Counted from the first letter of the stretch, positions 3,502-57,070 are shown. The stretch is 64,000 nucleotides of DNA from an uncultured bacterium (GCA_965112635.1 OZ218778.1:437807-501806), one strand, 5' to 3'. Notes: a model not told the origin generated them from the letters alone. Made by a program: numbers and translations.

Positions 3502-4128
3502 TCAATATCCTTTTTTGTTTCTGGCCCTCGTAAGGGATTGCCATATTCTCAGAGCTTTTGTCCTCAAATTCCCTAGTGTTGAACTGTTATGTATTACAAA
3601 ATCTGCATTCCTCAGCCTCTTTTTAGGGGCCATTTGGCTTCTGATCCTTATCCCTGCGTCCTGCCCAGCGAACCCTCTCTTGCGCAACCAATGGATTTGA
3701 TTGGTCCGCGAGGCCATGACAATGATCACTACATCCACATCAGCAACCAGTCCAGCCTCTAGTAAAAGAGGGGCATCCACGACAATAAACCTAGCTGAAG
3801 AATGACGCAGCCGCTTGATTGTTTTCCGCAGGTCCCTGACTACAGATGGATGAATAATGCGATTTAGTCTTTTTAAGGCCCTGGGGTCCCTAAAAACAAT
3901 GTCACCCAGTTTCTTACGGTCTATCTGCCCACTGTTTTTCAGGATCGTTTGCCCGAAAGTCCTGACCAGTCTGGCGTAACTCTGTTGATTAGGCTGCAGG
4001 TAAGTTCGGGCTAATTGGTCAGCATTGAGGATCCTGGCTCCCCAGCGATGGAATAATCCAGCTACGGTGCTTTTCCCGGAGGCAATCCCGCCAGCGATGC
4101 CAATGACCAGGGGCTTAGGGGCATTCAT
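3502..4128 (-). CDS. coaE: Dephospho-CoA kinase. The start is moved to the internal Met MNAPKP; the longer track ORF looks like a 5' over-extension.
   Basis: P-loop IGIAGGIASGKST and CoaE-family conservation (HPSVVRD, DAPLL). The RBS context favours the ATG at 4128. Confidence 0.8.
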   Translation of the reverse strand: MNAPKPLVIGIAGGIASGKSTVAGLFHRWGARILNADQLARTYLQPNQQSYARLVRTFGQTILKNSGQIDRKKLGDIVFRDPRALKRLNRIIHPSVVRDLRKTIKRLRHSSARFIVVDAPLLLEAGLVADVDVVIIVMASRTNQIHWLRKRGFAGQDAGIRIRSQMAPKKRLRNADFVIHNSSTLGNLRTKALRIWQSLTRARNKKGY

Positions 4129-4147
4129 TAGACAACCTCGATTTTTC

Positions 4148-5580: not shown

Positions 5581-5593
5581 CCTGAGTTCCTGG

Positions 5594-6640: not shown

Positions 6641-6671
6641 CTTTTCTCCTTAGTCGGTATTTTATCCGTAT

Positions 6672-7607
6672 TTAGCAGACATGCCTTCTGGCTAGACCGG
6701 TAAAATATTTGATAGTTTCTTGGACTCCAATTTCAAGTTTCACCTGAGGACTCCACCCTAACCCATACCTAGCCTTTTGATAACTGAGGGTATTTGCCCT
6801 TAAGTCTCCCTTGCGAGGCGGCCCGCAAAATGGTTCTTCCTGATATCCCATAGCTTTTTTTATCATATTAAACAACTGCTTTACTGTGGCACCCCGGCTG
6901 GTACCAATATTAAAAGCCTGACCCTGTCCCTTGCTCAAAGCTAGCAGGTTCGCCCTAGCGACGTCTTGAACAAAAACATAATCCCGGATACACCCTCCAT
7001 CCCCAAAAATGATAGGTCTTTTACCTTCTAAAATAGCTTTGATAAAAATAGCCACAACCCCTGCTTCACCGTGTGGCTCCTGTCTGGGTCCATATACATT
7101 GCTGTATCGCAAAATCGTATATTTCAGGCCAAACTGCCTTGCATAAAACCTCAGGTAGTATTCTCCGGTTACTTTACTGATGCCGTAAGGATTTAGCGGA
7201 TCCAAAGGATATTTTTCTGTGCAGGGTAGTTTTTTAGGTTCCCCATAAACCGTACCTCCGCTGGAGATAAAAATGAATTTTTTGACCTTAAAACGCTTGC
7301 AGTTTTCCAGCAGATTCAATGTCCCCAGGGTATTGATCCCCGCATCCTCTTCTGGGTGGTCAACGGAATAAGGCACACTGATCTGTGCCGCATGGTGACA
7401 GACCACGTCAAACTCTTCCTTTTGGAACATTTTTTCAATCTTTGACGAGCGAATGTCCATCCGGAAAAACTTGGCTTTGGCAGGAATATTGGTTCTTTTC
7501 CCGCTGGAAAGATTATCCACCACCGAGACCTTGTGCTCTTTGGAAAGGAAAAGTTCGGCCACATGTGAACCGATAAAACCAGCTCCTCCAGTTACCAATA
7601 TTTTCAT
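6672..7607 (-). CDS. NAD-dependent sugar epimerase/dehydratase (UDP-hexose 4-epimerase-like). The start is moved to MKILVTGGAGFIGS.
   Basis: Rossmann motif GGAGFIGS and YxxxK catalytic motif (YGISK). An RBS (GAAAGGA) lies before the ATG at 7607. Confidence 0.8.
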   Translation of the reverse strand: MKILVTGGAGFIGSHVAELFLSKEHKVSVVDNLSSGKRTNIPAKAKFFRMDIRSSKIEKMFQKEEFDVVCHHAAQISVPYSVDHPEEDAGINTLGTLNLLENCKRFKVKKFIFISSGGTVYGEPKKLPCTEKYPLDPLNPYGISKVTGEYYLRFYARQFGLKYTILRYSNVYGPRQEPHGEAGVVAIFIKAILEGKRPIIFGDGGCIRDYVFVQDVARANLLALSKGQGQAFNIGTSRGATVKQLFNMIKKAMGYQEEPFCGPPRKGDLRANTLSYQKARYGLGWSPQVKLEIGVQETIKYFTGLARRHVC

Positions 7608-7680
7608 GGCTATTCCTTTCTCATGAAAATTGAGGACAGTATAGCAGAACAAAAACCTTTAAAATAAAACAAAATACCAT

Positions 7681-9088
7681 CTAATACGCGTGCTTGTGCT
7701 CAAGGATATCCAGGACCGTGCGAAGGATGATGGTGACGTCCAAAAGCAGCGACCAATTCTCGATGTAGTAGATGTCATATTTGACACGTTCCTCAATAGA
7801 TGTATTACCCCTCAAACCGTTGACCTGGGCCCAACCCGTGAGCCCCGCCCTGACTTTATGCCTTTCTAAGTAGCGGGGTATCTTATTTTTGAACTGGTTG
7901 ACAAAATGCGGCCGTTCCGGACGCGGTCCTACCAGGCTCATGTCCCCTTTAAGGATATTCAAGAGCTGTGGCAGCTCATCCAGGCTGGTCTTGCGCAAGA
8001 CTCGGCCCAGCCTGGTGCATCGCTGGTCATCCCGGCTTGCCCATACTGGCCCGCTGTGGGTTTCCGCATCCATCCGCATGGACCGGAATTTATAGGTCCA
8101 GAAAATTTTATTATCCCTCCCCACCCTCTCCTGCTTAAAGAACACCGGCCCCTTGGAATCGAGTTTGATCAGCACCATGATGACCAGCCAAACAGGTGAC
8201 AACACAACGATACCGATAAAGGAAAGGATAATATCCATGGTCCTTTTGATAAAACGGTTATAGGTTTTTTCCAGGGGTTCTTCCAGCAAGCCAAAGATGG
8301 GCATGCCCTGGATGTCATCCACATGAACAGGGCCGGTGATTAAGTGGAATACATCTGGAATGATTTTGACTTCTACTCCCTGTCCAGAGCAAACCTCGAT
8401 AATCTTGATGAGATGCTGGTCATCCGAACCGGAAACCGCCACAAAGATCTCCTCGATTTCGTATCTCCGTATTAACTGTCCCAACTGGGAGACCTGGCCT
8501 ACGACCCTCTGTTTAAAATGCTTGGCCATAAGAGCCTTGCCTGAAGGCCGCACAAAACCCAGCACCCTATAACCATACCTGAGATTGGTCCGCAAGCGTT
8601 CGTAGGTGGACCACGCGGCGTCGCTGGTTCCTACGATGAGGCAGCGGGTCACGCCGAACCCTCTCCTTCTCAGAATGATCTGCAATCGGCGCAAAATACC
8701 TCGGGACACAGCCAAAAAAAGGATATTGAGAGCCCAGTTAAAACTGAGCATGATCCTGGAAAAAGAAACCGTGCGGATGAAAAAAGTCGCGGCAATGAGC
8801 AGAATAAAACTGATGGTCACGGACTTAAAGATGGAACCGAACTCGTCCGCCCCGGAGATGGAATGCCTCTGCCGGTAGAGCCCGGTATATTTAAAAACAA
8901 ATACCTGCACTAACAAGGAAACCAACAGAGCCCAAGCATACCACTTGGGATTGGACAGGAACGCGTGGGGCACCCATCCCGAAAAGAACCTAACCCAGAA
9001 AATGGCCCCAAAGGACATGCTCAGAACCATCAGGTCCGCTAAAAGCAGGAGCAAAAGGAAGAAACGATGGATGTTCCGTTTAGGCATT
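7681..9088 (-). CDS. Undecaprenyl-phosphate hexose-1-phosphate transferase (WbaP/EpsB-type polyprenyl glycosylphosphotransferase); initiating enzyme
   Basis: Multiple TM helices are followed by the bacterial sugar-transferase C-terminal domain (KFRSM...[21 protein letters not shown]). The start is placed at the internal ATG (MPKRNIHRF), which overlaps the upstream gene's stop by 9 nt. Confidence 0.85.
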
Positions 9089-10198
9089 ATGGATGCGGCC
9101 TTCCCTGAATGCTTTATATTTGGTATTGATAAACTCCAAGAAATTGTGCTTAAAATTTTCCCGGTTAAACCGCTGGGCGTTCCTCCTGATCTTCTCAGGG
9201 TCGAACTTGATGCTGGCAAGTGTTTTTAAAGCCTCAACAAGAGAGGTTTCGCTTAGTTCATTGAAAAACAATCCGCTTTCTCCTGGAATGACCGTTTCCA
9301 GACACCCTCCCTTGGCATAGGCCACCACGGGCTTGCCCATGGCCTGCGCCTCGACCGGCACAATACCAAAGTCCTCTTCTCCTGGGAAAACCAAGGCTTT
9401 GCACTTGCTGTAATAATCTCTAAGCTCCTCATTGGACCGCCATCCCAGGAAACGCACTGTGGAACCGGCAGTTTTCTCTAGTCTTTTCCTTTCCACACCT
9501 TCGCCAATGATGACCAAAGGCCAACCCAAAGTGTTAAAAACCTTGATCGCCAGATCTATCCTTTTATAAGGAACCAGGGCCGAAACAATGAGATAAAAAT
9601 CCTCCCCTCTGGATTTCTCGTTCTTAAAAAACTCAACATCGGCTGGAGGATAAATGACCTCGGCTTTCTGGTTGTAATACTTGTCTATCCGTGTGGCAAC
9701 GTGTTTAGAAATGGCCGAAAAATAGTTGACCCTGGCGCTGGAGGCGGCATCCCAAGTTCTAAGGTAGCTTAAAAAATATGAAAGCAACTGGTATTTAAAG
9801 AACGAACTTTTTTCTTTTGGAAAATATTCAAAGGTCTGGTCCCAAGCATAGCGCATGGGTGTGAAGCAGTAGCACAGGTGCAAGGTTTCTGGCCTAGTGA
9901 TCACCCCTTTGGCTACGCAATGACTGGTGCTGATGACCAGGTCATAGGCCCTGAGATCGAACTGTTCGATGGCCATGGGGAACAGAGGCAGGTAATGCTG
10001 GTACTTGGTCTGGGCAAACGGCAGATGCTGGATAAAAGAAGTCTGAATGCGGTGCTGGAGTAAGGCGGCTGAAACATTGGGCCTATTGAGCACAAGGGTA
10101 AAAATATCCGCCTCCGGAAAAAGTTCTCCCAAGCACTCCAGGACTTTTTCTCCCCCGCGCATGCCGGTCAGCCAGTCATGGACTAAAGCGACTTTCAC
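9080..10198 (-). CDS. Family 4 glycosyltransferase (GT-B)
   Basis: C-terminal GT4 signature with E...E motifs (FPGEEDFGIVPVEAQAMGKPVVA). Confidence 0.8.
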   Translation of the reverse strand: MKVALVHDWLTGMRGGEKVLECLGELFPEADIFTLVLNRPNVSAALLQHRIQTSFIQHLPFAQTKYQHYLPLFPMAIEQFDLRAYDLVISTSHCVAKGVITRPETLHLCYCFTPMRYAWDQTFEYFPKEKSSFFKYQLLSYFLSYLRTWDAASSARVNYFSAISKHVATRIDKYYNQKAEVIYPPADVEFFKNEKSRGEDFYLIVSALVPYKRIDLAIKVFNTLGWPLVIIGEGVERKRLEKTAGSTVRFLGWRSNEELRDYYSKCKALVFPGEEDFGIVPVEAQAMGKPVVAYAKGGCLETVIPGESGLFFNELSETSLVEALKTLASIKFDPEKIRRNAQRFNRENFKHNFLEFINTKYKAFREGRIHNA

Positions 10199-10420
10199 GT
10201 CTTAGATTCTCCTCATGAACTTGGATCATTCGTTCTTTTATTTTACCCTAATATTTTAGGACTACCCATAATATCTATGTGCCCTTTTTTCAACTGGTTC
10301 CTGGTGTTTCTCCTACCGTTTTTGTCCTCAAAAACCCCACAGTTTTTCTTGATAATCCTTGAGGTTTCACCTCTATCAAATAATAGGGGATATGACATTG
10401 AGGATAAACTGCGGGAAAAC

Positions 10421-11131
10421 CTAATCAAACAGATTGTATCTTAAGATAGTCCAGATAGCCGACACGCCATCTTTCCAGCTTATTTTTTTGCCTTCCGAAT
10501 AATCCCGGCCGTAGTAGGAGACTGGTACTTCGTACACGCGGCATTTAAGCTTGGCTACTTTAGCGGTTACTTCCGGTTCAATTCCAAACCGATTGGATTT
10601 TAAATTCATCTTTTTTAGGACCTCCATCCGGAAGGCTTTATAGCAGGTTTCCATATCTGTCAGATTGAGGTCCGTCAACATATTGGAAAGCAGGGTCAAA
10701 AAAGTATTGCCCACAAAATGCCAGAAAAATAAAACCCGACGCGGAGCCCCGTCAAAACGGGAACCGTAAACAACATCAGCTTTATTTTCAAGGATTGGGG
10801 CCAGCAATTTACCGTAATCCTTTGGATCGTACTCCAGGTCGGCGTCCTGAATGACGGCGTAGTCTCCGGTGGCTGCTTCCATGGCCCTGCGTATGGCCGA
10901 ACCTTTCCCTTGGTTCTTCTCTTGGTAGTAGACCTTCAAAAATTTCGATCCGCGATATTTTATTTCCATAGCCTGCAGTATTTTTTTGGTACGGTCCGTC
11001 GAATCGTCATCCACGATGATGAGCTCCTTGGTCAATGAGCCCGGAAGCTTGGCCTTCCTGACTTTTAGGACAATCTCTTCAAGGGTCCTTTCTTCGTTAT
11101 AAACCGGCATTAACACGGAAAGTTTTTTCAT
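10421..11131 (-). CDS. Family 2 glycosyltransferase (DPM1-like polyprenyl-phosphate glycosyltransferase)
   Basis: LSVLMPVYNEE...VDDDSTD...DADLEYDP motifs typical of GT2 / Dpm1-like enzymes. Confidence 0.8.
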   Translation of the reverse strand: MKKLSVLMPVYNEERTLEEIVLKVRKAKLPGSLTKELIIVDDDSTDRTKKILQAMEIKYRGSKFLKVYYQEKNQGKGSAIRRAMEAATGDYAVIQDADLEYDPKDYGKLLAPILENKADVVYGSRFDGAPRRVLFFWHFVGNTFLTLLSNMLTDLNLTDMETCYKAFRMEVLKKMNLKSNRFGIEPEVTAKVAKLKCRVYEVPVSYYGRDYSEGKKISWKDGVSAIWTILRYNLFD

Positions 11132-43316: not shown

Positions 43317-43628
43317 ATGGGAAAAATGCCTGTTCAAATTACCGTTGACGACAAAAAAATAGCCGATTTCTGCGTGCGGAACCATATCAGGAAACTATCC
43401 TTTTTCGGATCGGTGTTGGAGGAAAAATTCAGGCCGGACAGCGATATTGACGTTTTGTTGGAATTCGATACCCAATATCCTGTTGGTTTCAGGATCATTG
43501 ACATGGAAGAAGAGCTTTCCCGTCTGTTGGACGGCCACAGGGTGGATATTGTAAATGCTAAATACCTTAATCCCCGCATGAGGAACAATGTGTTGGCCGG
43601 GGCGGAAATGCACTATGCCCAGGGATGA
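43317..43628 (+). CDS. Minimal nucleotidyltransferase (MNT) antitoxin of a HepT/MNT module
   Basis: Pol-beta-type NTase motif GS...DSDIDVLLEF. Confidence 0.8.
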   Translation: MGKMPVQITVDDKKIADFCVRNHIRKLSFFGSVLEEKFRPDSDIDVLLEFDTQYPVGFRIIDMEEELSRLLDGHRVDIVNAKYLNPRMRNNVLAGAEMHYAQG

Positions 43629-43953
43629 AATGATTTATCTGGGGCATATGCTGGATATGACCCAAAAGGCGGTTGATTCGCTAAGAGGAAAATCCCGTGC
43701 CGATTATGATGGGGATGAAATTCTAAGACTGGCCTTGGCTCACCTGGTGCAGACCATCGGAGAAGCAGCTTCCCACGTGTCAAAAGATACTCACGCGAAA
43801 TACCCCAATATCCCATGGAAAAAAATTATCGGGATGCGGCACAAAGTCGTTCACGACTATATGTATGTGGATTATGACATCCTGTGGGACGTTGTTTCCA
43901 TTGAGCTTCCCGCCATTATTCCTCAACTCAAAAAAACATTGGGCATTAATTAA
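43615..43953 (+). CDS. HepT-like (DUF86) toxin, HEPN RNase
   Basis: Overlaps the MNT gene by 14 nt. DUF86/HepT conservation includes an Rx4HxY-type motif (RHKVVHDY). Confidence 0.8.
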   Translation: MPRDEMIYLGHMLDMTQKAVDSLRGKSRADYDGDEILRLALAHLVQTIGEAASHVSKDTHAKYPNIPWKKIIGMRHKVVHDYMYVDYDILWDVVSIELPAIIPQLKKTLGIN

Positions 43954-46099: not shown

Positions 46100-46165
46100 T
46101 CTTAAAAACATGAAAAACAAAACCTTATTTTAGCCTGTTTTGGGGGCGTAAACTACCCCAAACAC
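46100..46165 (+). repeat. Copy 2 of the ~60-bp dispersed repeat (see 43165-43225)
   Basis: cttaaaaac...ttttagcctgttttgggggcgtaaactaccccaaac, in the same orientation as copy 1. Confidence 0.5.
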
Positions 46166-46359
46166 ACCACTTCCAGGGGCTAATTTATCAAGGGTTCCAG
46201 GGGAGTTTCAATAGGGGATGGGGGGGAGGCGGGATGTCAAATGTCAGACCTGCCCTCCGTAGTGTTTTAAAGGGGGGACGCGACCCCGGGTGTTCTCTCA
46301 GCACCCCCTTGTGGGGTGGTTCTAGAACTACCGAACTAGCGTCTCCGATGCAATGGCCG

Positions 46360-47076
46360 CTACCTAGAGTTTTGTGGTATGCCCTGATTAGCGGGAGCTG
46401 GTGGTCTTAACTGGGGACCATTAAGAACAGCATCCACAAACCGATTCCTTGTTAAAGCGACAATAATTGCATTTCCATCCTTACGGTCAGGATGCAATTG
46501 CCAGAGAACATTTCGCTTTTGATCCTGGTCATACTTTAATACAAACCCCAGAAAATCGAAAAACACCGACACTCGGCTATTGAGCCAGGCGACAGGAAGG
46601 CATTTTTCAGGATTGGGAACTAAGTAATAATCAATCTTGTTTGTGCGTTTAAAACTACCAAAACCCTTTTGAAAACGAGGATAGTCTCTCTTTAGCCGCG
46701 TCCCATCAACAACCCATGCCATTTTTCCATAGAAAGCCTCACGGCTTTGCACCTCACTAGCCTTGATCGCAGAATGCTGAAATTCTATTACGAACCCATT
46801 CTTAGCCTTTATATCTGCAATATGTTTTTCTCCAGTTGTATCTGTATGGATTACCTCCTGCCAATTATCAGGAAAATGTTCTTTCCATTTTCTGTGCCAC
46901 TCTGTTTCATTTTCCCACCAATGATCACAGTCTGCGGTTCTTTTGTGAGCCCAATGCCAGACCTTTACCAGCCCGCACTTGGCGATCATTTCACTTTCGC
47001 AATATCTGCAAGTACCCCGCAGCCCTCGCTGAGCCTCTACCTTGTTTCCATTTACCTTAGCAAATTTCATATTCAT
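46360..47076 (-). CDS. CoiA-like family protein (competence protein CoiA-like; predicted Zn-finger plus nuclease-fold domain)
   Basis: CRYCESEM...C Zn-ribbon, then HWAHKR...H...E...DIKAKNGFVIEFQHSAI, which matches the CoiA-like domain pattern (HFAH...iEfQ.S). First gene of the AT-rich island. Confidence 0.6.
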   Translation of the reverse strand: MNMKFAKVNGNKVEAQRGLRGTCRYCESEMIAKCGLVKVWHWAHKRTADCDHWWENETEWHRKWKEHFPDNWQEVIHTDTTGEKHIADIKAKNGFVIEFQHSAIKASEVQSREAFYGKMAWVVDGTRLKRDYPRFQKGFGSFKRTNKIDYYLVPNPEKCLPVAWLNSRVSVFFDFLGFVLKYDQDQKRNVLWQLHPDRKDGNAIIVALTRNRFVDAVLNGPQLRPPAPANQGIPQNSR

Positions 47077-47105
47077 TTCCTTTTAACACCAAAAATAAGT
47101 CTTAA

Positions 47106-47276
47106 TTACTTTTGCGAACCGTTTTTTTCTAATAATGAACGGATATTTTTTAAATGCTCTTCTATTTTATCTAACTTGAAATACCAAAGGACAATGCTTC
47201 GAAAAATATAAAACAATGAAATCATAATAGCCAAAACTATAATAAAAGCTACTAAGTAGGCCACCGCATCAACCAT
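47106..47276 (-). CDS. Small (56 aa) single-TM peptide with a perfect Shine-Dalgarno sequence; not in the ORF track because it is shorter than 60 aa
   Basis: GGAGGATTTT-ATG, then MVDAVAYLVAFIIVLAIMISLFYIFRSIVLWYFKLDKIEEHLKNIRSLLEKNGSQK, which has one strongly hydrophobic helix. Translated manually. Confidence 0.35.
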   Translation of the reverse strand: MVDAVAYLVAFIIVLAIMISLFYIFRSIVLWYFKLDKIEEHLKNIRSLLEKNGSQK

Positions 47277-47506
47277 AAAATCCTCCTTTAAAATAAAATC
47301 GAAACACCATTAAAACTACATATTGATTTTACGCCCACTGCTATTCCTGTCAAACATTTCACCCAAATATCTATTTCGGCGTTACGGCGATTGCCGAAAC
47401 GCCGAAGGAGATTTGGTAGCGATAAAAGAAGAGGAATTACTGGTTGGGAGTAAAAGGGTGGAAAGAGGCGACTGCTAGACCTTATAACTGAAGACCTGAC
47501 CCCCAT

Positions 47507-48451
47507 TTACAATAATTTTCCTTGGTTTTTATTAGCATATGCTAAATGCCGTAAGTTGTAGAATTGATCCTTTTTAAAATAAATATCCTGACTAATTATT
47601 TGTTTCTTGGATAATTTATTTTTAGGAAAGAAGGATAATCCATATTTTTTATAATACACACTTTTAAAATTAGATGCATTAAACTCCATAATCTGTATTG
47701 GTAATGAGTTTTGCAACATTTTCTCCGCACAGTTACATTTTCCTTGATGTTCCGAGGTATTATCCAATATCTGCCCAAAGGTCCCTGTAATTAAATCTAC
47801 GTACTGAATAATATGACTCTGTTCTTTATATAATGCTTCCTTCTCATGATCCGAATCCACTTCCAATATTTCATGGTTCTCAAATTTGATATGTTCATCA
47901 TTAATAAAAGCTTTAGTGCCAATCTCAAAAATTGGTTTAGTGTGAAAATTGTCCTCAGATTCTCTGGTTTTTGAATCAGAATAAATATTTTTTATTGTTA
48001 CCTTATCAAATCCAGCGGACTTATTTAGAAAAAACCATTTTAAAGCACCATATAATCCTATTTGGAAAAATCTATTATAGATTTTAAAATCCCTGGTTTG
48101 ATTATCATTCCATAAAGATTTATCCACTTTTGTCAAATCTACCCCAAAAAAATAAAAATAACTTGATTTCATATTTTGATTACAAAATAAATTTAACCAT
48201 CTATTTGCCAAATCATTCTGCGTCAGCGTATTGTTCAGCTTATGAAAATGCAATTCTTTGTTCCACGTGCTTTTTTCACGTTGCTGCAAAAGAGAACCAA
48301 CGAATTTGTCTTCTTTATCAAACGGTATAAATAAATAACCGTGATATAACCACGATTTCGATAATATTCTTTCATCATGAAAAACATTGCATTTAATTTC
48401 TTTATTTTGTACAGGAATATTAAAAAGATCCACATTCATTTCAGTAAGCAA
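47507..48451 (-). CDS. Hypothetical 314-aa protein, very AT-rich and Lys/Asn/Phe-rich; no recognisable domain
   Basis: A long uninterrupted ORF in the AT-rich island, immediately downstream of the HerA-like gene in the same orientation. Confidence 0.5.
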   Translation of the reverse strand: MLTEMNVDLFNIPVQNKEIKCNVFHDERILSKSWLYHGYLFIPFDKEDKFVGSLLQQREKSTWNKELHFHKLNNTLTQNDLANRWLNLFCNQNMKSSYFYFFGVDLTKVDKSLWNDNQTRDFKIYNRFFQIGLYGALKWFFLNKSAGFDKVTIKNIYSDSKTRESEDNFHTKPIFEIGTKAFINDEHIKFENHEILEVDSDHEKEALYKEQSHIIQYVDLITGTFGQILDNTSEHQGKCNCAEKMLQNSLPIQIMEFNASNFKSVYYKKYGLSFFPKNKLSKKQIISQDIYFKKDQFYNLRHLAYANKNQGKLL

Positions 48452-48458
48452 CCATGTT

Positions 48459-50153
48459 CTAGTCCTGCTTATAAGCTGGCTTTGGAAAAATAACCTTCAC
48501 TGGCTGACGAAATATTGCATGCTGAACGAGTAGCTCCCCTTTGGTTAATCTTGTCACCGAAGACTTTAATTCCTGTTCTAAAAATCGGTAATCCGGTTGC
48601 ATGATTTCGCTTGATGTACTACGTCCAATTATTTTTGTTGCGGCATTTCCGGTCACGCGTGGATGCACGGCACTCAAAAACTGTTGGGCTGAAAGCAAAA
48701 TAACACCAAGAGACCGGCCACGTTCTGATATATCAAGTATCTGTTCAATAAGTGGAGATTCCTTACCACCGGAAGGTGCGTATTTATTGAGCTCGTCTAC
48801 AAAAATCAATACTTTCTTGGGAAGATTAAGTGTTTCATCAGACTCTGCAAACATTTCATAAATATTTCGTATCACATCTCCGAAAACGAAAGCCTGTTCA
48901 TGATCTAGTAATTTTGCTATATCAATAACATATGTATGTCCGCCTTCTATTTTATGTATTTCATCTGCCAGGTGGTGCTCTAGACGTGTGCGACGGTCCG
49001 TAAAAAGACCCGTAGTACGCGTCTTTACCATTCGGCGAAGGTGTCTCCGAAACTTACCGACAGAACTGGGTTTTATGTCACCTATTCCTTGGGATTTTCC
49101 AGAATCAGCAAGAGGATATCCGTCCAGAAGGCTACTCCAATCCTGAACTTTAGCAAACGGTGATTTCGCTGTCTTATTCATTAAACCGCTCGATATTTCT
49201 CCTATAAGGGAATCAATAGTTTCTGTTGGATCAGGAATGCTGGAAAATAGTAAATCCAGCTTATCCGCAGAGTCATTTAATTCATAAGCATAAACTTTGT
49301 GTTGATTTGGCCTGACAAAACTATTGGCCTCTCCATTTTTAGCTCGAGGCAAATAGTAATGGACATTCTGAAATGGTTTTGGCTCTAACCCAAGACGCAG
49401 CCAAAGACCCTTTTGCTCTTCACTTAAATCTTTTGGCGGCTCATCAATCTTAAGCAAATCTCCATGCTTAACATTTAAAATGATAACAGCGACTTCCGAT
49501 GATTCAATTTTTTGAATAATAGACTGTAGTAAAAACATTGCATAACTTGTTTTAGTAGCCAGCCCACTAATCCCTGAAATATTGACGTGAGCCGATTCGG
49601 GACCGATTACATAATCTTTATCAAGATAAACTACTGCCTCAACATCGTTACTCATTTTAATTAGTCCGGCAGGGATCCGATTCTCTTGTTTCATAGTGTC
49701 TATTCCTAAAGCCGCATGGATGCCTGACTCGTCAGCAAACCGAACATTTCTTTCATTTTCAATGGGCATGTAGATTCCATCTTTAGTTGTTCCATCAGAA
49801 TTTTTGCCACCGCCGTCATTCATCATAACGTTAGCTTTAGCAAGAGTTGCTCCCACCCGTGGCGTATTTGGCTCTTCCGCAACTGATCCAAAATTATTTG
49901 ACACAAAATTCGCGAGATGACTTGCAGCGTCCGTCCTGTGCTCCAGACCAGCGATTAGCCCATATGTTTTACTTCCGTTAAAATGTTCCGATTCAACAAT
50001 GTCAAAAGGATTTACAAGAACATTCGCAGTTATCCAGAAATTAAACTTGTCGGCTGTAGTTGGTTCCTTGTCTGTCGCTGATGTCCTCCCGATTATCGGA
50101 TTTTCTTTCTTATCACTCATATACGCTACCTCCTCAAAGCAGAATTTATACAA
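48459..50153 (-). CDS. HerA/FtsK-superfamily-like P-loop ATPase (tentative)
   Basis: Deviant Walker A region (NISGISGLATKTS), Walker B hhhhDE (VLIFVDELNKY) and a downstream Arg-containing segment (ERGRSLGVILLSAQQ); 564 aa. Overlaps the upstream NurA-like gene by 28 nt. Confidence 0.5.
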   Translation of the reverse strand: MYKFCFEEVAYMSDKKENPIIGRTSATDKEPTTADKFNFWITANVLVNPFDIVESEHFNGSKTYGLIAGLEHRTDAASHLANFVSNNFGSVAEEPNTPRVGATLAKANVMMNDGGGKNSDGTTKDGIYMPIENERNVRFADESGIHAALGIDTMKQENRIPAGLIKMSNDVEAVVYLDKDYVIGPESAHVNISGISGLATKTSYAMFLLQSIIQKIESSEVAVIILNVKHGDLLKIDEPPKDLSEEQKGLWLRLGLEPKPFQNVHYYLPRAKNGEANSFVRPNQHKVYAYELNDSADKLDLLFSSIPDPTETIDSLIGEISSGLMNKTAKSPFAKVQDWSSLLDGYPLADSGKSQGIGDIKPSSVGKFRRHLRRMVKTRTTGLFTDRRTRLEHHLADEIHKIEGGHTYVIDIAKLLDHEQAFVFGDVIRNIYEMFAESDETLNLPKKVLIFVDELNKYAPSGGKESPLIEQILDISERGRSLGVILLSAQQFLSAVHPRVTGNAATKIIGRSTSSEIMQPDYRFLEQELKSSVTRLTKGELLVQHAIFRQPVKVIFPKPAYKQD

Positions 50154-51253
50154 CCTTGGATAACTTCCGTAGAAAAGAACAACTGTTTTGAAGCATGTTC
50201 AGCTTGATAGATAGGGTAAAGATGAGAATGCCAACGATCATCTGATCCATAAGGGGTCACAAATCGCTCTGCGAGTAAGGCTCCTGATATTTGATCCAAA
50301 AGCTCTGTTGTTAAAGGTTGTTCTTCAAGAATAGGAATCTCTACCTTTATTACGCCAAATAAGGGGTATAAAACCTGCTGTGATTTCCTTAATCTTAAAT
50401 ACCAGAATGCAGTTTTGCCCCCATATCCTTCATACGCAGCAGTTCGATTATTTTGTGGCAGATTACCAAGTAAGGAAACTACGCTCTCACTCTGCCTAGC
50501 TTTACCTTGCTGAGAATAAAATTTTTGTACAGTTGTAAAATTTTTTGCTACTCCAATTACCTTGGGGCTTTGCATGCCACCGCCAAAATGACCGAAGGAG
50601 ACAAGACCATCCTTTAAAAGCCATCCATCGGGAACCTTATCACGAAATTCTTTAGCAATTTCAAACTCCATGGTGCTCATCAAATGTCTTGTTTTGCTCC
50701 TTCCCCTTTCTCTTAAATCCTGCGTTTCCAGGAATTCACCGCTAAGGGCATCAAGTTCAATTAAATCTTTAATAATAATATTTACCCCTGCATCTTTAGT
50801 TGAGTCTTGTATTTTTTGCCACGCCAACTCTGATACTCTTGATTTAGCTATCAAAAGAAACCACTGATGTCTCTTGAAAACAGAAGTTAACCTTCCCTCA
50901 CCACTACGTTTTAAAATAGTAACTGATATTTGAGAAAGGAATATCGGGGTTGCGCGGTCATGTTCAAGGCCGGTTGCCAGAAAATAATGCCGGTAGGAGC
51001 CGTCGAGAAAATACCTGAAAAAATGATTTTGTTCTCTAGTTATTGGCTGTAGTTCCTTGTATTTCCATGTTGGTTTGGGAACTTCAAGTAAAGAATCAAT
51101 TTGCAGGTGATCGCCAACGAGTTTAGTGTCATCCCTTTCTTCTTCTCCAACAAAGGTCATTTCCTCAGTAGCTCCCCCACTAGCGGGAAGTAGCTCTAGT
51201 TGATTAGAAACAACAGACATAATTGATTTAAGGGTACTTACAAATTCCCTCAC
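50126..51253 (-). CDS. NurA-like nuclease (tentative)
   Basis: 375 aa with a NurA-like first catalytic motif (FLDGSYRHYF). An overlapping operon arrangement with a HerA-like ATPase is typical of NurA-HerA pairs. Confidence 0.45.
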   Translation of the reverse strand: MREFVSTLKSIMSVVSNQLELLPASGGATEEMTFVGEEERDDTKLVGDHLQIDSLLEVPKPTWKYKELQPITREQNHFFRYFLDGSYRHYFLATGLEHDRATPIFLSQISVTILKRSGEGRLTSVFKRHQWFLLIAKSRVSELAWQKIQDSTKDAGVNIIIKDLIELDALSGEFLETQDLRERGRSKTRHLMSTMEFEIAKEFRDKVPDGWLLKDGLVSFGHFGGGMQSPKVIGVAKNFTTVQKFYSQQGKARQSESVVSLLGNLPQNNRTAAYEGYGGKTAFWYLRLRKSQQVLYPLFGVIKVEIPILEEQPLTTELLDQISGALLAERFVTPYGSDDRWHSHLYPIYQAEHASKQLFFSTEVIQGCINSALRR

Positions 51254-51758
51254 CTATCCTCCAAACTTAAATTTACTTCCTTTAATTCGTCCTTATTTAT
51301 ACCCCATATATCTGACGCAATCTCATTGATCTGGTCCTCATATTCACTTACATTTATTCCAGACATAACCTTGTCATGACATATTTTCGAGAGTCTTGCC
51401 AATTCTTGGTGAGCTTCTAAAATTTTAGTAAATTTAGGTATTTTTATTTTTTCCAAAATGTGAGTACTCTGTGATGTAGATATTGTGTAAGACCGAACAA
51501 TTAGTCTAGTAATAGACGAATTTAATAGCGCACACAAATAATGAGCTTCTATTTCATCTTGAATATCAACCATCATAAGTTTATGATCTGGAATAATTGT
51601 TTTACCATTTAATTCGGAAATAACAGCACATTCAAACTCTGAAGATTGTTCCTTCCAAACAACCTTAAACGGACTAAATGTATACGGTCCAATATTATAA
51701 ATAGCGTATGACCTGCCCCCATTCTTTGTACCACTTGTTAAGTTAGAGTTAAGCAGCA
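51250..51758 (-). pseudogene. C-terminal fragment of an N6-adenine DNA methyltransferase (TaqI_C/Eco57I-type target-recognition region), truncated at its 5' side by the IS3 insertion
   Basis: ...FKVVWKEQSSEFECAVISELNGKTIIPDHKLMMVDIQDEIEAHYLCALLNSSITRLIV... has the hallmark LLNS motif of the TaqI_C domain. The track ORF's first ~45 codons (51759-51897) lie inside the IS end and are spurious. Confidence 0.5.
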
Positions 51759-52465
51759 TGACATAGGGCAATGCAAGGTTGCAGCAACCTTGCTTCCGGA
51801 GCTGGTGGCCGATACCCCAGTGAGCTATGCGGTCTTTTTGTATTGTACTCCTTCCTCCAGTTTTCGATAACATACTTTGCCTCCCACAGATTATCAAATA
51901 TTTCTCCGGCTAAGACCTCGTCCCTGAGTTTCCCATTAAAAGACTCGCAGTATCCGTTCTCCCACGGACTTCCAGGTTCGATAAATAAAGTCTTAACGCC
52001 GATATTACCCAGCCAACCTCTGATCATTTCTGAAGTAAACTCGCTTCCGTTATCCGACCTGATGTACTCAGGAATACCTCTACTGATGAATAGATCCATC
52101 AAACATTCCTGAACATCATCCGCCTTGAGACTTCTTCCCACTACCAGAGCCAGGCACTCCCTGGTGTATTCGTCTATCACGGTCAAGATCCGGAACGCTC
52201 GTCCTTCGCTTGTTCTATCCTTTACAAAATCATAGCTCCAGACATGGTCCTTATGATCTGGCCTTAATCTGACACAGGAGCCGTCGTTGAACCACAGACG
52301 CCTTCTTTTACGCTGCTTCTTCGGTATTTTTAGCGCTTCCTGTCTCCATATTCGCTCAACTTTCTTGTGATTAACCAGCCATCCCTCATCTCTGAGCATT
52401 GCCGTAATCCTACGATATCCGTAACGGCCATACTGGTTGGCCAGATTGATGATAGTTTCTGCCAA
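51749..52465 (-). CDS. IS3-family transposase OrfB (rve integrase core), 5'-truncated/separated from orfA by the IS256 insertion
   Basis: YGYRRITAMLR...HKDHVWSYDFV...IDEYTRECLA...E DDE-type integrase core. Confidence 0.85.
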   Translation of the reverse strand: MAETIINLANQYGRYGYRRITAMLRDEGWLVNHKKVERIWRQEALKIPKKQRKRRRLWFNDGSCVRLRPDHKDHVWSYDFVKDRTSEGRAFRILTVIDEYTRECLALVVGRSLKADDVQECLMDLFISRGIPEYIRSDNGSEFTSEMIRGWLGNIGVKTLFIEPGSPWENGYCESFNGKLRDEVLAGEIFDNLWEAKYVIENWRKEYNTKRPHSSLGYRPPAPEARLLQPCIALCHAA

Positions 52466-52585
52466 CCCCCAATCCCTTCCTTCGCGCTTTTGCTGGTACC
52501 TGGTTGTGTACCATTCCTGGGTGTAACTTCAACGAGGGGAAAGGCAAGGTTAGATTGCAGCAATCTAACCTTGCGGCCCCAAAAA

Positions 52586-53906
52586 TAAGTCCACGGGCGT
52601 AGACTAGGTGATTGCTTAGGTCACCAAACCCAAAATAAAAGGAGGTCTACACCCGTGAAGTCATTATCCCAAAGAATTGAGATTTATACGAATCAGAAAA
52701 TCAGAGAAAAAGTCAGAAAGATCGCACAGCCCGGTGTCGCTCTGGAAGTAATTGGCCAGGAGGTCAATGCCATCATTGCCCAGGCTTTAGATATTCAACT
52801 GGAGGCTGAAAGGGACGAGTTTTTGGGCCGTCAGCCTTATGAACGCCTTGAAAACAGCCCTAAAAGAAACGGTTTTAAATCCACCTCTGTCCCCGGCTTT
52901 TTTGGCAGACTTTTTCTGCACAAACCAGCTCTACGCCAGGGGTCCCTTCACTCGCCCTTGCTTACCGCCCTCAAACAAGCTGGAAAAGGCCTGGCTTCCT
53001 TCCTCGCCATCCGCTTCTGGCTCAAAGGCGCTGCCACTCGCTCTACCGCCGCTGAGATAAATGCCGCTTTGGGCACAAAGCTCTCTCACTCCACCGTCTC
53101 CACTCTCACCAACGCCTTGGAGCCAGCCATCCGTCAGTGGATGAATCGTCCCATTCCTCCCAACATCACCTACCTGCTCCTGGACGCCGCCTACCTGCCT
53201 GTCAGAAGACCTGGTTTTACCTCCAAACAAGCTCTATTGCTCGCCCTAGGCATGGATTCCTTTGGCAATCGCCATGTCCTGGGTTTCCTTCTCGGCGATA
53301 GAGAGTCCTTGGACTCCTGGCAGGCTTTTATCAATGACCTCCTCAAAAGAGGCCTTAACCGCAACACCCTCAGGCTCGTCATCTCCGATGAACACAAGGC
53401 CATTGAGCAGGCCGTCAAAAACCTCCTGGCTGTCCCTCACCAGCTCTGCCTGGTCCACAAGATCCGAAACCTCAGAGCCATTATGCCTCGCCGTGACTGG
53501 GGTGCCTTCCTTAACGATTTCAAAGCTATCTATTGGGCCGATTCCCGCAAACTGGCTCTCCAGGCCTTTGGCCGCCTCCAAGCTCGCTGGATGAAACTCT
53601 ATCCTAGAGCTACGGCTATGGCTCTCGATAGGTTCGACAACCTCACCACCTTCATGAACGAACCCCAGCATGTCTGGCGCACTCTCCGCTCCAGCAATCT
53701 CATCGAACGCTTTATCGCCGAGATCAAACGGCGCACCCGTGCTGCCGGCACCATGCACTCCGAATTGGAGGTCGCTAAGATCGTCTGGTCTGTTTCTACC
53801 ACTCAGGAAGATAATTGGTCTAAAAGAAAACTCTGGAAATCTCAAGGAGGTGATCTGGTTCAGGAAGGCTTGCTAAATGTTGCTTAACCTACTACCCGTG
53901 GACTTA
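52586..53906 (+). mobile_element. IS256-family insertion sequence with imperfect terminal inverted repeats (taagtccacgggCgtagACtagg / cctaCtacccgtggactta)
   Basis: The inverted repeats were found by eye and flank the transposase gene. Confidence 0.65.
52655..53887 (+). CDS. IS256-family (Mutator-like) transposase
   Basis: 410-aa product with the DDE region YLLLDAAYL...VISDEHKAIE...E and IS256-type N-terminal conservation. It starts at GTG. Confidence 0.9.
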   Translation: MKSLSQRIEIYTNQKIREKVRKIAQPGVALEVIGQEVNAIIAQALDIQLEAERDEFLGRQPYERLENSPKRNGFKSTSVPGFFGRLFLHKPALRQGSLHSPLLTALKQAGKGLASFLAIRFWLKGAATRSTAAEINAALGTKLSHSTVSTLTNALEPAIRQWMNRPIPPNITYLLLDAAYLPVRRPGFTSKQALLLALGMDSFGNRHVLGFLLGDRESLDSWQAFINDLLKRGLNRNTLRLVISDEHKAIEQAVKNLLAVPHQLCLVHKIRNLRAIMPRRDWGAFLNDFKAIYWADSRKLALQAFGRLQARWMKLYPRATAMALDRFDNLTTFMNEPQHVWRTLRSSNLIERFIAEIKRRTRAAGTMHSELEVAKIVWSVSTTQEDNWSKRKLWKSQGGDLVQEGLLNVA

Positions 53907-54046
53907 ACAACTTACACCCGAAAACTTGACATAATCCTGGTACCTCTGCGTTGAGCGCCCTTGCTCTACTGCTTTGCATGCCCGGCGCTCAGAAACTCCC
54001 ATATTTACGCAGACTTCTTCTACCGCTGCGCGTCTTTTCACCGGGC

Positions 54047-54337
54047 TTAATATTTTCCCGAACTTATCACCTTGTTGTATTCCTTCAGTATCTGGATATC
54101 CAAAGCTTGATTTGCGATCACTTTCTTTAACTGGTTATTTTCTTGCTCCAGCGACCTTAATCGCTTGGCCTCGTCCACTTTCATCCCGCCGTATTTCTGC
54201 CGCCACTTGTAGTAGGTATTCGCCGATATTCCTTTTGCCCGACAAAGCTCCTCTACCGTCTTGCCTTTGGCTATCTCTACCTCAAACTCCCGTAGCATGG
54301 ATACGACCTGCTCGGGTTTGTTGTATTTCCTTGGCAT
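54047..54337 (-). CDS. IS3-family transposase OrfA (HTH)
   Basis: MPRKYNKPEQVVSMLREFEVEIAKGKTVEELCRAKGISANTYYKWRQKY...LEQENNQLKK gives an HTH plus a leucine zipper, as in IS3 OrfA. Confidence 0.8.
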   Translation of the reverse strand: MPRKYNKPEQVVSMLREFEVEIAKGKTVEELCRAKGISANTYYKWRQKYGGMKVDEAKRLRSLEQENNQLKKVIANQALDIQILKEYNKVISSGKY

Positions 54338-54406
54338 AAAAATCCCCCTTCCTTTGTCCTTCCTTTAGAGTTATTCTAACTCAAAAGGTGGACCAGTTTT
54401 AGGGGG

Positions 54407-55264
54407 TCAGGTCATGGCACCCTCTTTTTTTTGGTCTAAATAGGCCCTGACCCTTTCCTGGTTACTTGAAAAATTCTGTTCTTGCGCATCCTCAGAAGGC
54501 ATAGGCTGTCCGGTTTCCCCGTCAAGTGAGGCCGTTGTTTCAACCACAGAACCTGTCCCGGCCTCCGGCCTGGGAGGTCCTGGAACAGGCCTGTCCTGGG
54601 TCCGTGTTTTGGTCCCCGGCCCTGTCATGGCTGTGGTATCCCTGGTTTTTCCCGGTTTGCTTACGGCCAGGGCCAGCACTTCCAGCCAGGAGAAACGGAA
54701 CATGGAGAGCATGGCCTGCTTGATCTTTTCCACTTCCTTGGGATCGGTCCGGTCCCTCAGGAGCCTCAAGCGCCTGAGGTTCCATTCGCTTATTATTTGC
54801 AGGAGGGAAAGGACCAGGCTAAACCAGATGGACGAGACCAGGAACATGATCCGGTTATCCCCGGCTATGGACAAGTCTGCCCACCCCAATTTCTCCAGGA
54901 TATGCAGCAATATCCAGAGGCTAAACCACATAGCCAGGGTAATTAAGGAGGGTATCCTAAACCAGGGCCTGTCCGGCTCGGTCTGGCCTGCCCGGAAAAA
55001 CGCCCAGGCTTTGAACTCCTGCCAGTAAACATAGAGGCTGAACAGGACCGTATAGCACAGGAAAAACCACCTGGTGCCAGCCAGGGCAGTCAGCGCATTA
55101 GTGTTGCCCCAGAAAATGTTGTAAAAACCCCGATGATAGAATTTCAAGTTTATGTCCAGGGGATCGGCCCAAACCCGAAAAAGGATACAGCCCAGGTTCA
55201 GCCCGGCGCTGAGCCAGGCCAGCATGGAAAACAGGCTTTTGGGGAGGTTTTCAGACCTAGTCAT
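54407..55264 (-). CDS. Integral membrane protein with a Pro/Thr-rich C-terminal tail; function unknown
   Basis: Six or more TM helices, then a low-complexity tail (PGTKTRTQDRPVPGPPRPEAGTG). Confidence 0.5.
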   Translation of the reverse strand: MTRSENLPKSLFSMLAWLSAGLNLGCILFRVWADPLDINLKFYHRGFYNIFWGNTNALTALAGTRWFFLCYTVLFSLYVYWQEFKAWAFFRAGQTEPDRPWFRIPSLITLAMWFSLWILLHILEKLGWADLSIAGDNRIMFLVSSIWFSLVLSLLQIISEWNLRRLRLLRDRTDPKEVEKIKQAMLSMFRFSWLEVLALAVSKPGKTRDTTAMTGPGTKTRTQDRPVPGPPRPEAGTGSVVETTASLDGETGQPMPSEDAQEQNFSSNQERVRAYLDQKKEGAMT

Positions 55265-55519: not shown

Positions 55520-57070
55520 TTATCTGACTATCGCCAGCTTTTTGATGACGGTGGTCTCTTTGCCTGAAAGGTCTTTGACCCTGATCCTGTAAAGGTAAGC
55601 CCCGTTAGCCAGACCAGAGACGCCAAAAAAGAACTGATTTGTGCCTGCGTTGGTTGGTGCAGGTTTGGTCCAGATACTTCTACCGTTGGAAGTAAATATT
55701 TCAATAGAGGCGCTCTGCGCCTGCCCGGCCAGGTAGTACTGGATAACCCCTGTATTTCCCTTAATGGGATCAGGAACTGTATGCACATTACTTTCTTGAA
55801 TTAAAGTGGAGGGTATAGGAGTAGGCATATTTGTTGGAGTAGAGGTTGGAGGGTTATAGCATATTTGAAGCTGAGGACAATTGTTAGAAAAACCTCCGAA
55901 ATATAAAGCTGTTAAATTATAGCCAGGTAATAAACACATACCTTCATTACTGGATAACATATTTAAAACCTCTGAATTGCTTAACGGAACCGTAAATTGT
56001 GTATATGAAAAGGAAAGGGGATTGATGATTCCCATATAGGGATAAAAACAATCCCACCCTAAATCCATACATCCACCTCCGCCCCCTACCCATTGCGTTG
56101 TTCCTGTTTGATAGTTCCAACATGCTCCATATTGAGTATATAAATTATTTGCCGGTGCAATTCTAGAAACATAACATGTCGTCATACCGCCCGCATTTGC
56201 AACATACATTGATAAAAAAGCCCAATTTATAGTTGAACCAGGTTGAATAGCGGATAAATTCCATTTTAAAACTGCAGTGGAATTTGTTGAGTTATAATTA
56301 TTACCTACAAAATAATATGATGGACATCCATAATTTTGACTAGGTTGTGATTGAACTAATTCAGCCATAATTATAGGTGTTGCTATAAAATTAGGAGTTG
56401 GAGTGAAAGAAGGTGAGCAAACGCCACTGGTAACTCCGATCATAAAATTACTCCATCTCGCCGCAATATTCATTGAACCAATCTGGGAATCACCGCTTAA
56501 CATACCACATTGAGTGCCTGTATTGGTAAACGTATTATCAGTTATGGTGGTGAGCAAGGCATCATCGACATAAATATTGCAGGTGCACCATTTGCAAACG
56601 ACCTTAATAATATCCCCGTTTGCCGGAGCGGGCCCACCGCTGCCGAGAACTCCCAGGGTGTTGTTCGCGAAATAGCCCCATTTATAATTATGTCCCCCGG
56701 AAGTATCGTCCCAAACAACATAAAAATTATTTTGGTCTTGCGCCCTGAAGATCACTCCCTGGTTGGTTTCATGATTGGATAATACGCATTGAACGGTGTA
56801 GTCAGGGCCGCCTGAATTAATTAATGCTCTTCCGTACTGCGTGGGAGCGTAGGCCTGGCCTGATGATATGCCGAAATTTTGATTATAGGCCAGCCAGGAT
56901 TGCCCTGTGTCAGCCGTTCCCAGGGATGATGAATTATCAGGACGATTGAAACTGTCAGTAACAATAGGACACGCGGTTGGGGTTGGTGTTTGACAAAAAA
57001 CAGACTTTGCCATTGATAATGAAATGATAAAAAAAATCAAATACTCAAACCACAAAAACGACTTTTTCAT
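55520..57070 (-). CDS. Secreted protein with a T9SS-type C-terminal sorting domain
   Basis: Signal peptide (MKKSFLWFEYLIFFIISLSMA) and a C-terminal ~80-aa beta-sandwich tail (...GAYLYRIRVKDLSGKETTVIKKLAIVR) that resembles the Por/T9SS CTD. Confidence 0.55.
   Translation of the reverse strand: MKKSFLWFEYLIFFIISLSMAKSVFCQTPTPTACPIVTDSFNRPDNSSSLGTADTGQSWLAYNQNFGISSGQAYAPTQYGRALINSGGPDYTVQCVLSNHETNQGVIFRAQDQNNFYVVWDDTSGGHNYKWGYFANNTLGVLGSGGPAPANGDIIKVVCKWCTCNIYVDDALLTTITDNTFTNTGTQCGMLSGDSQIGSMNIAARWSNFMIGVTSGVCSPSFTPTPNFIATPIIMAELVQSQPSQNYGCPSYYFVGNNYNSTNSTAVLKWNLSAIQPGSTINWAFLSMYVANAGGMTTCYVSRIAPANNLYTQYGACWNYQTGTTQWVGGGGGCMDLGWDCFYPYMGIINPLSFSYTQFTVPLSNSEVLNMLSSNEGMCLLPGYNLTALYFGGFSNNCPQLQICYNPPTSTPTNMPTPIPSTLIQESNVHTVPDPIKGNTGVIQYYLAGQAQSASIEIFTSNGRSIWTKPAPTNAGTNQFFFGVSGLANGAYLYRIRVKDLSGKETTVIKKLAIVR

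Follow-up and report, generated by a model that had tools for sequence, protein, structure and literature searches.

Do the six minus-strand genes of an AT-rich island in an uncultured bacterium make up a single, undescribed defence system? The island occupies positions 46360-51748 of a 64,000-nucleotide (nt) stretch of DNA (GCA_965112635.1 OZ218778.1:437807-501806; the whole stretch is called the window below). An earlier note, made from the sequence alone, had proposed a restriction-like or abortive-infection module composed of a DNA methyltransferase fragment, a NurA-like nuclease, a HerA-like ATPase, a protein of 314 amino acids (aa), a small membrane peptide and a CoiA-like nuclease. All six open reading frames (ORFs) were recovered in the window. 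The best overall explanation, which we hold with high confidence, is a decayed three-gene cassette encoding a type IIG restriction-modification enzyme, NurA and HerA, together with unrelated hitchhiker genes; the island would then be no single system but a patchwork of three or more units, each mobile in its own right. The window copy is a decayed example of a cassette type that is known already, from Thermus, but still little characterised; the wider picture gained here is the breadth of this type across phyla and its absence from PADLOC v2, the defence-system catalogue that was tested. The cassette and its right-hand boundary comprise the following features, in which IS denotes an insertion sequence.

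51256..51708, minus strand: remnant of a type IIG restriction-methylation gene, final ~151 codons, from the C-terminal specificity-domain region
51250-51897, minus strand: chimeric 215-aa ORF, the remnant joined in frame to IS3 terminal sequence
50126..51253, minus strand: NurA-family nuclease, 375 aa, full length, assigned by profile and predicted structure
48459..50120, minus strand: HerA/FtsK-type ATPase of the TdtA clade, 553 aa, starting at the ATG at 50120
51709..54414: IS3-family element of ~1.39 kb, split by an IS256-family element; right-hand island boundary
51749-52465: IS3 orfB (rve)
54047-54337: IS3 orfA (HTH_Tnp_1)
about 52586-53906: IS256-family element inside IS3, with its transposase (Transposase_mut) at 52655-53887

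A scan of one genome per species yielded 80 loci, including 61 non-redundant loci with a HerA at least 44% identical. NurA was directly upstream of HerA in every one of the 58 non-redundant loci where the contig allows the comparison, and a full-length type IIG gene lay on the same strand in 38 of the 42 loci whose flanks extend to 3.5 kb or more, either directly upstream of NurA (19), directly downstream of HerA (8) or 0.5-3 kb away (11). The conserved cassette consists of a type IIG enzyme of ~1090 aa (1087-1103), a NurA of ~376 aa (375-380) and a HerA of ~553 aa (553-562), with operon-like start-stop overlaps between the genes; around HerA homologues, a 1087-1088-aa Eco57I/N6_Mtase protein, a 376-380-aa protein and a 553-aa ATPase were encoded with overlapping ends. 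The methylase remnant, NurA and HerA are a genuine linked trio, found as a same-strand cassette in dozens of unrelated genomes. The idea of one joint system, advanced in the earlier note, was right for these three genes, which co-localise elsewhere, and wrong for the 314-aa, 56-aa and CoiA-like genes, which are not conserved partners. Additionally, a sub-clade of the relatives carries a ~410-aa N6_N4 methylase gene directly after HerA, as does Thermus thermophilus HB27.

The gene set had been taken as undescribed, but the same cassette is found in the tdtA operon of the integrative and conjugative element (ICE) ICETh1 of T. thermophilus HB27. This operon encodes Tth111II/TthHB27I (TTC1877, type IIG, 1106 aa), a NurA-like protein (TTC1878, 377 aa), the HerA/FtsK hexameric ATPase TdtA (TTC1879, ~560 aa) and an N4/N6 methylase (TTC1880, 410 aa), and it is the 'DNA secretion system' of transjugation (PMC5365140, PMC7767461). 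Deletion of tdtA abolishes DNA donation, and deletion of NurA or Tth111II cuts donation by 3-5 orders of magnitude (PMC5365140); genetically, all three genes are required for one process (PMC5365140, PMC7767461). In the transjugation model, cuts made in donor DNA by the restriction enzyme serve TdtA-NurA as transfer origins (PMC7767461). TdtA is membrane-associated, and its hexamers are wide enough for duplex DNA (PMC5365140, PMC7767461). Tth111II has low specific activity and mainly nicks (PMC5365140).

Blesa et al. (2017) named T. scotoductus DSM 8553 as a carrier of a tdtA-like cluster (PMC5365140), and this strain was among our loci (L022), with genes of 1103, 376 and 562 aa. Its ATPase is 56% identical to the window HerA over residues 1-553, and the identities of its NurA and type IIG enzyme to the window or reference proteins are 38% and 42-43%, respectively. 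By way of this ATPase the window HerA qualifies as a TdtA ortholog, and NurA lies directly upstream of it, as in the tdtA cassette. On the evidence of gene content and similarity, the window trio is best regarded as a truncated copy of the kind of cassette carried by ICETh1. Homology and the Thermus genetics together show that the three cassette proteins act together. Regarding ICE carriage, no tRNA occurs anywhere in the window, no integrase lies within or adjoining the island, and the flanks of the IS region showed no direct repeats; the upstream portion of any ICE may have gone with the deletion described below.

The 215-aa ORF had been read as the C-terminal fragment of a methyltransferase at the IS junction. 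It matched the PADLOC model REase_MTase_IIG (1.7e-47, model positions 934-1096 of 1100) and scored slightly under the cut-off for Pfam TaqI_C, but its first ~64 codons are IS3 sequence in another reading frame. A type IIG fragment of 151 aa is thus present, and the ORF as a whole is a chimera with IS3. With intact type IIG relatives as tblastn queries, residues ~923-1086 aligned at 51720-51256; because the IS3 terminus lies at 51709, the remnant was set at 51256-51708. The retained residues correspond to ~937-1087, and ~935 codons with the nuclease and methylase domains were lost; tblastn of intact type IIG proteins over the 64 kb found no further piece, no full-length Tth111II-like gene and no nuclease or methylase domain. 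Type IIG enzymes combine the nuclease, gamma-class N6-adenine methylase motifs I and IV and the specificity domain in one polypeptide, and the window has the C-terminal specificity fragment alone. Recognition, cutting and methylation were lost with the removal of the first ~935 residues, which disposes of the target-recognising adenine methyltransferase that had been supposed.

The nested IS3/IS256 insertion was confirmed, with IS3 orfA and orfB split by the IS256 transposase. The IS3 termini are imperfect ~40-nt inverted repeats, starting TGACCTGCCCCC at 51709 and finishing GGGGGTCAGGTCA at 54414. No target duplication was found at the IS3 flanks, where the triplets gta and tgg differ, and this absence suggests that the type IIG truncation arose through an adjacent deletion driven by the IS, or else through recombination of one IS copy with another. 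IS3 insertion followed by adjacent deletion would have stripped the first ~935 residues from the enzyme. The remnant/IS3 junction is also the point at which two further assemblies of this organism break.

Both other cassette genes are full length, with every family-invariant residue. The start of NurA overlaps the stop of the upstream remnant (GTGA). Its assignment as a NurA-like nuclease was upheld: the family profile matched Deinococcus radiodurans NurA (7f6d_H, E=5e-4), the AlphaFold2 model showed a NurA fold (predicted local distance difference test 84, predicted template-modelling score 0.86), and Foldseek ranked 7f6d_G (E=1e-11) and Thermotoga maritima TM1739 (1zup, E=2e-8) above all others. 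The invariant residues D84-G85, D215-G216 and H342/H344 are all kept. No PADLOC v2 model matches this protein, and searches of Pfam and NCBIfam with the NurA-like, HerA-like and 314-aa proteins gave no usable match.

The HerA-like ATPase likewise proved to be what it had been called. The match to 7f6d_B, the HerA of D. radiodurans, stood at 2.3e-40 and improved to 8.4e-50 when a profile was used; the window protein has in common with it the P-loop NISGISGLATKTSYA, with the unusual pattern NISGISGxATKTSYA, and the DELNKYAP of its Walker B motif (FVDELNKYAP). An ORF from the TTG at 50153 would be 11 codons longer. Because all homologues are ~550 aa, the true start is the ATG at 50120, 5 nt past the NurA stop, and the 28-nt overlap with the nuclease reported in the earlier note was an artefact of taking the longest ORF. 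PADLOC gave weak partial matches to the P-loop (mad8, 2.4e-9, in the C-terminal region; HerA, 2.3e-5), and neither was taken as a sign of membership in the corresponding defence system. A second, distant HerA group (L067-L086, from Gemmatimonadota and Gastranaerophilales) shows 31-34% identity and shares the conserved peptide motifs; type IIG neighbours are lacking there and NurA matches are weak or absent, and the group may be a housekeeping clade.

Since NurA and HerA retain their full length and all invariant residues, the loss of the type IIG gene was probably recent. In the window, the NurA-HerA pair most likely does nothing or is left with non-specific processing of DNA ends. This copy is broken and teaches little on function alone.

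The related loci come from Ignavibacteria, Chloroflexota, KSB1, Bacteroidota, Armatimonadota, Deinococcota, Nitrospirota, Thermotogota, Acidobacteriota, Actinomycetota, Bacillota and others. The distribution is patchy, with 80-85% identity between members from Ignavibacteria, Chloroflexota and Zhuqueibacterota; the nearest relatives show ~85% amino-acid identity, and other assemblies of the window organism are identical. Among 32 type IIG relatives, D64, E73, methylase motif I (DPxCGSGTF) and motif IV (NPPW) were at least 90% conserved; in the reference enzyme of L004, the N-terminal PD-ExK-type motif reads D64...E73-x-K75, with K75 completing ExK. In the enzymes of L003, L004, L007, L008 and L010, residues 1-700 were 72-82% identical and residues 701-1087 were 46-49% identical, a pattern that suggests exchange or fast divergence of target specificity in the C-terminal third.

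To characterize the surroundings, 141 genes flanking or interrupting the cassette were annotated with Pfam. They spread over 133 Pfam families, which means that synteny is not conserved. The commonest neighbours were AAA_21/AAA_15 (PADLOC AriA/HEC-01A/mad3-like), SocA/Panacea, helix-turn-helix plus M78 peptidase, integrase, NACHT and DUF3800 genes. Toxin-antitoxin, AAA_21/AriA-like, STAND or integrase genes are often found beside the cassette, mixed with ordinary housekeeping genes; tyrosine integrases made up 2 of the 141. An AAA_21/AAA_15 ATPase (PADLOC HEC-01A/AriA-like) with a partner of ~197-247 aa recurs between type IIG and NurA or just upstream of the cassette (L003 2770-4547, L047 6273-8854, L048 5795-7765 and L054 6898-8845).

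Six relatives lie on viral contigs, one with the full cassette: the predicted viral contig L173 (IMG/VR UViG_3300045912_000930) carries complete type IIG, NurA, HerA and N6_N4 methylase genes at 3409-10991. The cassette is also carried by one recombinase-flanked island, and these two occurrences indicate that it travels on mobile elements. The plasmid collection held no close relatives, its HerA-like genes being 24-46% identical. Taken together, the lack of synteny, the recurrence of the trio and its conflict-type neighbours fit a mobile, conflict-type module and not a housekeeping repair operon. To this extent the interpretation given at the outset was supported for the trio, and it failed for the six genes as a system.

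How might an intact cassette work? The type IIG enzyme would methylate host sites and would nick or cut unmethylated sites on incoming DNA. The NurA-HerA complex would then load at the break, pump the duplex through the HerA ring and degrade it processively, and a weak, site-limited cut would be turned into destruction of the entire molecule. We infer this mechanism of restriction plus degradation; a HerA-NurA amplifier would be useful because Tth111II has low activity and mostly nicks (PMC5365140). In Thermus, where the trio is needed for donation to neighbouring cells, it works on the cell's own DNA. Restriction and donation may be two faces of one activity, the Thermus phenotype possibly being that activity turned on self DNA. 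Our tentative proposal, plausible but held at less than even confidence, is that the cassette represents a widespread restriction class absent from PADLOC v2, with HerA-NurA amplifying a weak type IIG cut and Thermus transjugation as a side effect; the window would show the state after loss of the sensor, possibly with an RNase H-fold back-up.

The strongest alternative makes DNA export ('transjugation') the main task of the intact cassette: the type IIG enzyme would make transfer origins on donor DNA, and TdtA-NurA would push the DNA out. It draws on direct genetics in Thermus, namely the tdtA, NurA and Tth111II deletions, and on the membrane association of TdtA and the fit of its hexamer to duplex DNA (PMC5365140, PMC7767461), and carriage by the IMG/VR contig and the recombinase-flanked island would suit it as well. 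However, this direct experimental support comes from a single genus, whereas the cassette is found in a dozen phyla or more; few of the sampled neighbours are tyrosine integrases, and the window HerA has no predicted membrane segment and no secretion partner. Moreover, a fast-diverging specificity region combined with conserved methylase motifs is a signature of self/non-self restriction, and in a polyploid host with natural competence, self-restriction could yield donation as a by-product. We give export as the main function an appreciable but minor chance; for the general role, we think restriction plus degradation somewhat likelier.

Several points weigh against restriction plus degradation and against our account of the window copy. 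The degradation mechanism is one that we infer, and the sole experimental phenotype of the cassette is DNA donation in Thermus. No phage-defence assay of the cassette was found in the searchable literature, subscription-only papers being outside reach; a search for a NurA-HerA-restriction defence system returned the Thermus work and conceptually related HerA systems, and none of the papers found presents the cassette as anti-phage. Four loci (L013, L041, L047 and L054) have NurA-HerA without a type IIG gene, so the pair can persist alone and that of the window is not necessarily idle. The neighbourhoods were sampled two genes deep and are given as raw counts. The adjacent-deletion scenario depends on how the IS3 termini and the absent target duplication are read, and the pre-insertion allele was not found. 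Finally, the 7-nt spacing between HerA and the 314-aa gene and a homologue of the latter in L044 may leave some functional tie of this gene to the cassette.

The other genes of the island, with a promoter-like site among them, are listed here in the order of transcription.

47507..48451, minus strand: 314-aa protein with an RNase H-like fold, distantly DUF3800-like, starting 7 nt past the HerA stop
47326..47353, minus strand: promoter-like site ahead of the 56-aa ORF, with TTGACA and TAAAAT 16 nt apart
47106..47276, minus strand: 56-aa ORF with one hydrophobic helix and a Shine-Dalgarno sequence, AAGGAGG, 5 nt before its ATG
46360..47076, minus strand: CoiA-like nuclease of 238 aa, combining an N-terminal Zn-ribbon with a PD-(D/E)xK-type domain

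The 314-aa gene is probably co-transcribed with HerA and is not a conserved cassette member. It belongs to a small, uncharacterised family with 45 detected members, and its homologues mostly stand alone, for example beside MutS and a HEPN/MNT pair (L087) or beside RadC and a DUF1016 nuclease (L088). L044 is the sole other TdtA-type locus with a homologue after HerA (tblastn 30% identity over partial length; hhalign probability 98.5%). This homologue covered the whole DUF3800 profile (PF12686) with E=0.002 and 19.3 bits against a cut-off of 21; the window protein had no Pfam match. In L090 (607-6052), a homologue is flanked by genes for an N6_N4 methylase of 665 aa and a ResIII helicase of 836 aa, and the gene ends overlap; this operon resembles a type III restriction system, and HepT/MNT and PIN genes occur in the locus.

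NurA-HerA, possibly with the 314-aa protein, might alternatively be a working unit independent of type IIG enzymes, in which HerA captures free ends or replicating invader DNA for the nucleases. In its favour, neither gene is damaged or has lost an invariant residue, the type IIG gene is missing from four relatives, and the 314-aa gene follows HerA closely here and in L044 and recurs within the methylase-ResIII operon of L090. In addition, the pairing of HerA with Sir2 or a nuclease is well established in defence (PMC11291478, PMC11472057), and 'HerA/FtsK capture' systems have been proposed (PMC10853773). The relatives speak otherwise: the type IIG gene is retained in 38 of 42, and of the four exceptions three still have the ~410-aa N6_N4 methylase, which suggests that the pair normally needs a modification-aware partner. 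An end-degrading machine with neither guide nor self-marking would also be hazardous to its host, and we rate this possibility as improbable. In a decayed cassette, the 314-aa gene is perhaps a back-up effector.

The strong Shine-Dalgarno sequence claimed for the small peptide is present. The 56-aa ORF matched DUF4083 weakly, under the cut-off, and two further assemblies of this organism have it annotated as a gene. It has no conserved counterpart; small hydrophobic ORFs lie upstream in 6 of 61 CoiA-like relatives and are non-homologous. The promoter-like site matches the consensus at 11 of 12 positions and is the best of the region, although the total number of such sites is not above that in shuffled sequence; it suggests that the 56-aa ORF and the CoiA gene may form a separate transcription unit. 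The CoiA-like protein belongs to its family as claimed, with both Pfam domains above the curated cut-offs (CoiA_N, 4.7e-8 and 32.9 bits against 26.3; CoiA_nuc, 21.0 bits against 20.3). Among its 136 metagenomic relatives, 80 loci were fetched, and none had a NurA, HerA or 314-aa neighbour.

The island had been described as AT-rich relative to its flanks, and this was borne out. The G+C content (GC) of 46360-51748 is 0.377, compared with 0.485 outside 46.0-54.5 kb (standard deviation 0.035, minimum 0.394; 108 one-kilobase windows), a deficit of ~3 standard deviations that contradicts a uniform composition. GC is also uneven inside the island: it is lowest in the 314-aa gene and the 56-aa ORF (0.29), followed by the type IIG remnant (0.33), the NurA and HerA genes (0.40-0.41) and the CoiA-like gene (0.43). 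The 314-aa, 56-aa and CoiA-like genes are separate acquisitions, that is, hitchhikers, and the differing per-gene GC (0.29, 0.40 and 0.43) agrees with this.

We consider it very unlikely that the six genes are one undescribed restriction-like or abortive-infection system. They share a strand and an AT-rich block, the genes from the remnant through the 314-aa gene are tightly spaced, and several predicted nucleases stand side by side. On the other hand, co-occurrence elsewhere is limited to the remnant, NurA and HerA, a trio known already from Thermus (PMC5365140); the 80 sampled CoiA-like relatives lack such neighbours, the 314-aa gene is mostly stand-alone, the GC classes differ, and the 56-aa ORF has a promoter-like site of its own. 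Least credible of all is a housekeeping HerA-NurA operon for double-strand-break resection, as in archaea and Deinococcus: the closest solved structures are those of the D. radiodurans HerA-NurA repair complex, but the GC lies 3 standard deviations under the genome background, the relatives were searched for a syntenic position and showed none, identity is high across patchily distributed phyla, the pair shares its operon with a restriction enzyme, and the region is IS-flanked.

To the left of the island, the spacer at 46121-46359 is G-rich (GC 0.55), as the earlier note had said. An Rfam scan of 40-58 kb at E≤0.1 gave no match, this spacer included, so the spacer is not any known RNA. A HepT-like (HEPN) toxin and MNT-type nucleotidyltransferase antitoxin pair is encoded on the plus strand at ~43326-43953, 2.4 kb left of the island, according to precomputed Pfam matches on the identical contig (L001 8840-9467). 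To the right, a 285-aa membrane-protein ORF (54407-55264, minus strand) runs 8 nt into the IS3 terminal repeat (IS3 end 54414) before its stop, and its C-terminus may therefore also have been changed by the insertion or deletion. Beyond it, a 516-aa secreted protein is encoded at 55520-57070 (minus strand), whose C-terminal end by eye resembles a type IX secretion sorting tail; such a tail would put the host in the Fibrobacteres-Chlorobi-Bacteroidetes group, in agreement with the closest HerA relatives.

These results show that the transjugation operon is no peculiarity of Thermus, since many phyla carry the cassette. The cassette is missing from PADLOC v2, while its restriction enzyme keeps active-site motifs and the specificity region diverges fast, which raises a testable question: is it an immune system, a gene-transfer device, or both? 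In addition, a small RNase H-fold family was identified that recurs beside or inside restriction-type operons.

Among known systems, the remnant aligns to the C-terminal end of TspDTI/Tth111II-type type IIG enzymes (PADLOC REase_MTase_IIG; Pfam Eco57I, TaqI_C), and the intact relatives share with them the PD-ExK motif, the methylase motifs I and IV (NPPW) and a specificity region at the C-terminus that varies. Classical type IIG enzymes act alone, whereas the cassette gene stands in an operon with NurA and HerA, and the window enzyme is destroyed. The HerA-NurA end-resection complex of D. radiodurans (7f6d) and archaea has matching folds and the same adjacent pair of genes, and the P-loop and Walker B motif are nearly identical to those of D. 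radiodurans HerA; however, NurA identity is 16% by structural alignment, the distant HerA group reaches 31-34%, and the window context is mobile, AT-rich and linked to a restriction enzyme.

Sir2-HerA, DUF4297-HerA and proposed 'HerA/FtsK capture' systems, DndH among them, likewise couple a HerA-type hexameric motor to an effector nuclease (PMC11291478, PMC11472057, PMC10853773). The partner here is NurA; PADLOC matched no Sir2 or DUF4297 effector among the genes next to the window HerA, and its HerA model reached the ATPase at 2.3e-5. DndH joins a type IIG-like module of target-recognition domain, methylase and restriction endonuclease to HerA, but its methylase is described as inactive (PMC10853773), whereas the methylase of the intact cassette relatives keeps its catalytic motifs. 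The MADS set mad1-mad8 was represented by the partial mad8 match, with no other mad model found in the six proteins, and PADLOC v2 has no model for the type IIG-NurA-HerA cassette. DUF3800 proteins are retron-associated, defence-island genes (PMC7736814). The 314-aa protein, which is distantly similar to them, has an RNase H-like fold and an N-terminal acidic motif, but it lies near no retron and belongs to a family of about 45 members.

The tdtA operon of Thermus remains the closest counterpart. Its gene order and sizes match those of the window and its relatives, and its fourth gene, the ~410-aa N6_N4 methylase, recurs in a sub-clade of them. The window copy differs in keeping 151 C-terminal type IIG residues alone and in having no fourth methylase gene. 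Furthermore, its host belongs to a mesophile-type lineage of metagenome-assembled genomes and not to Thermus, the one genus from which DNA donation is known.

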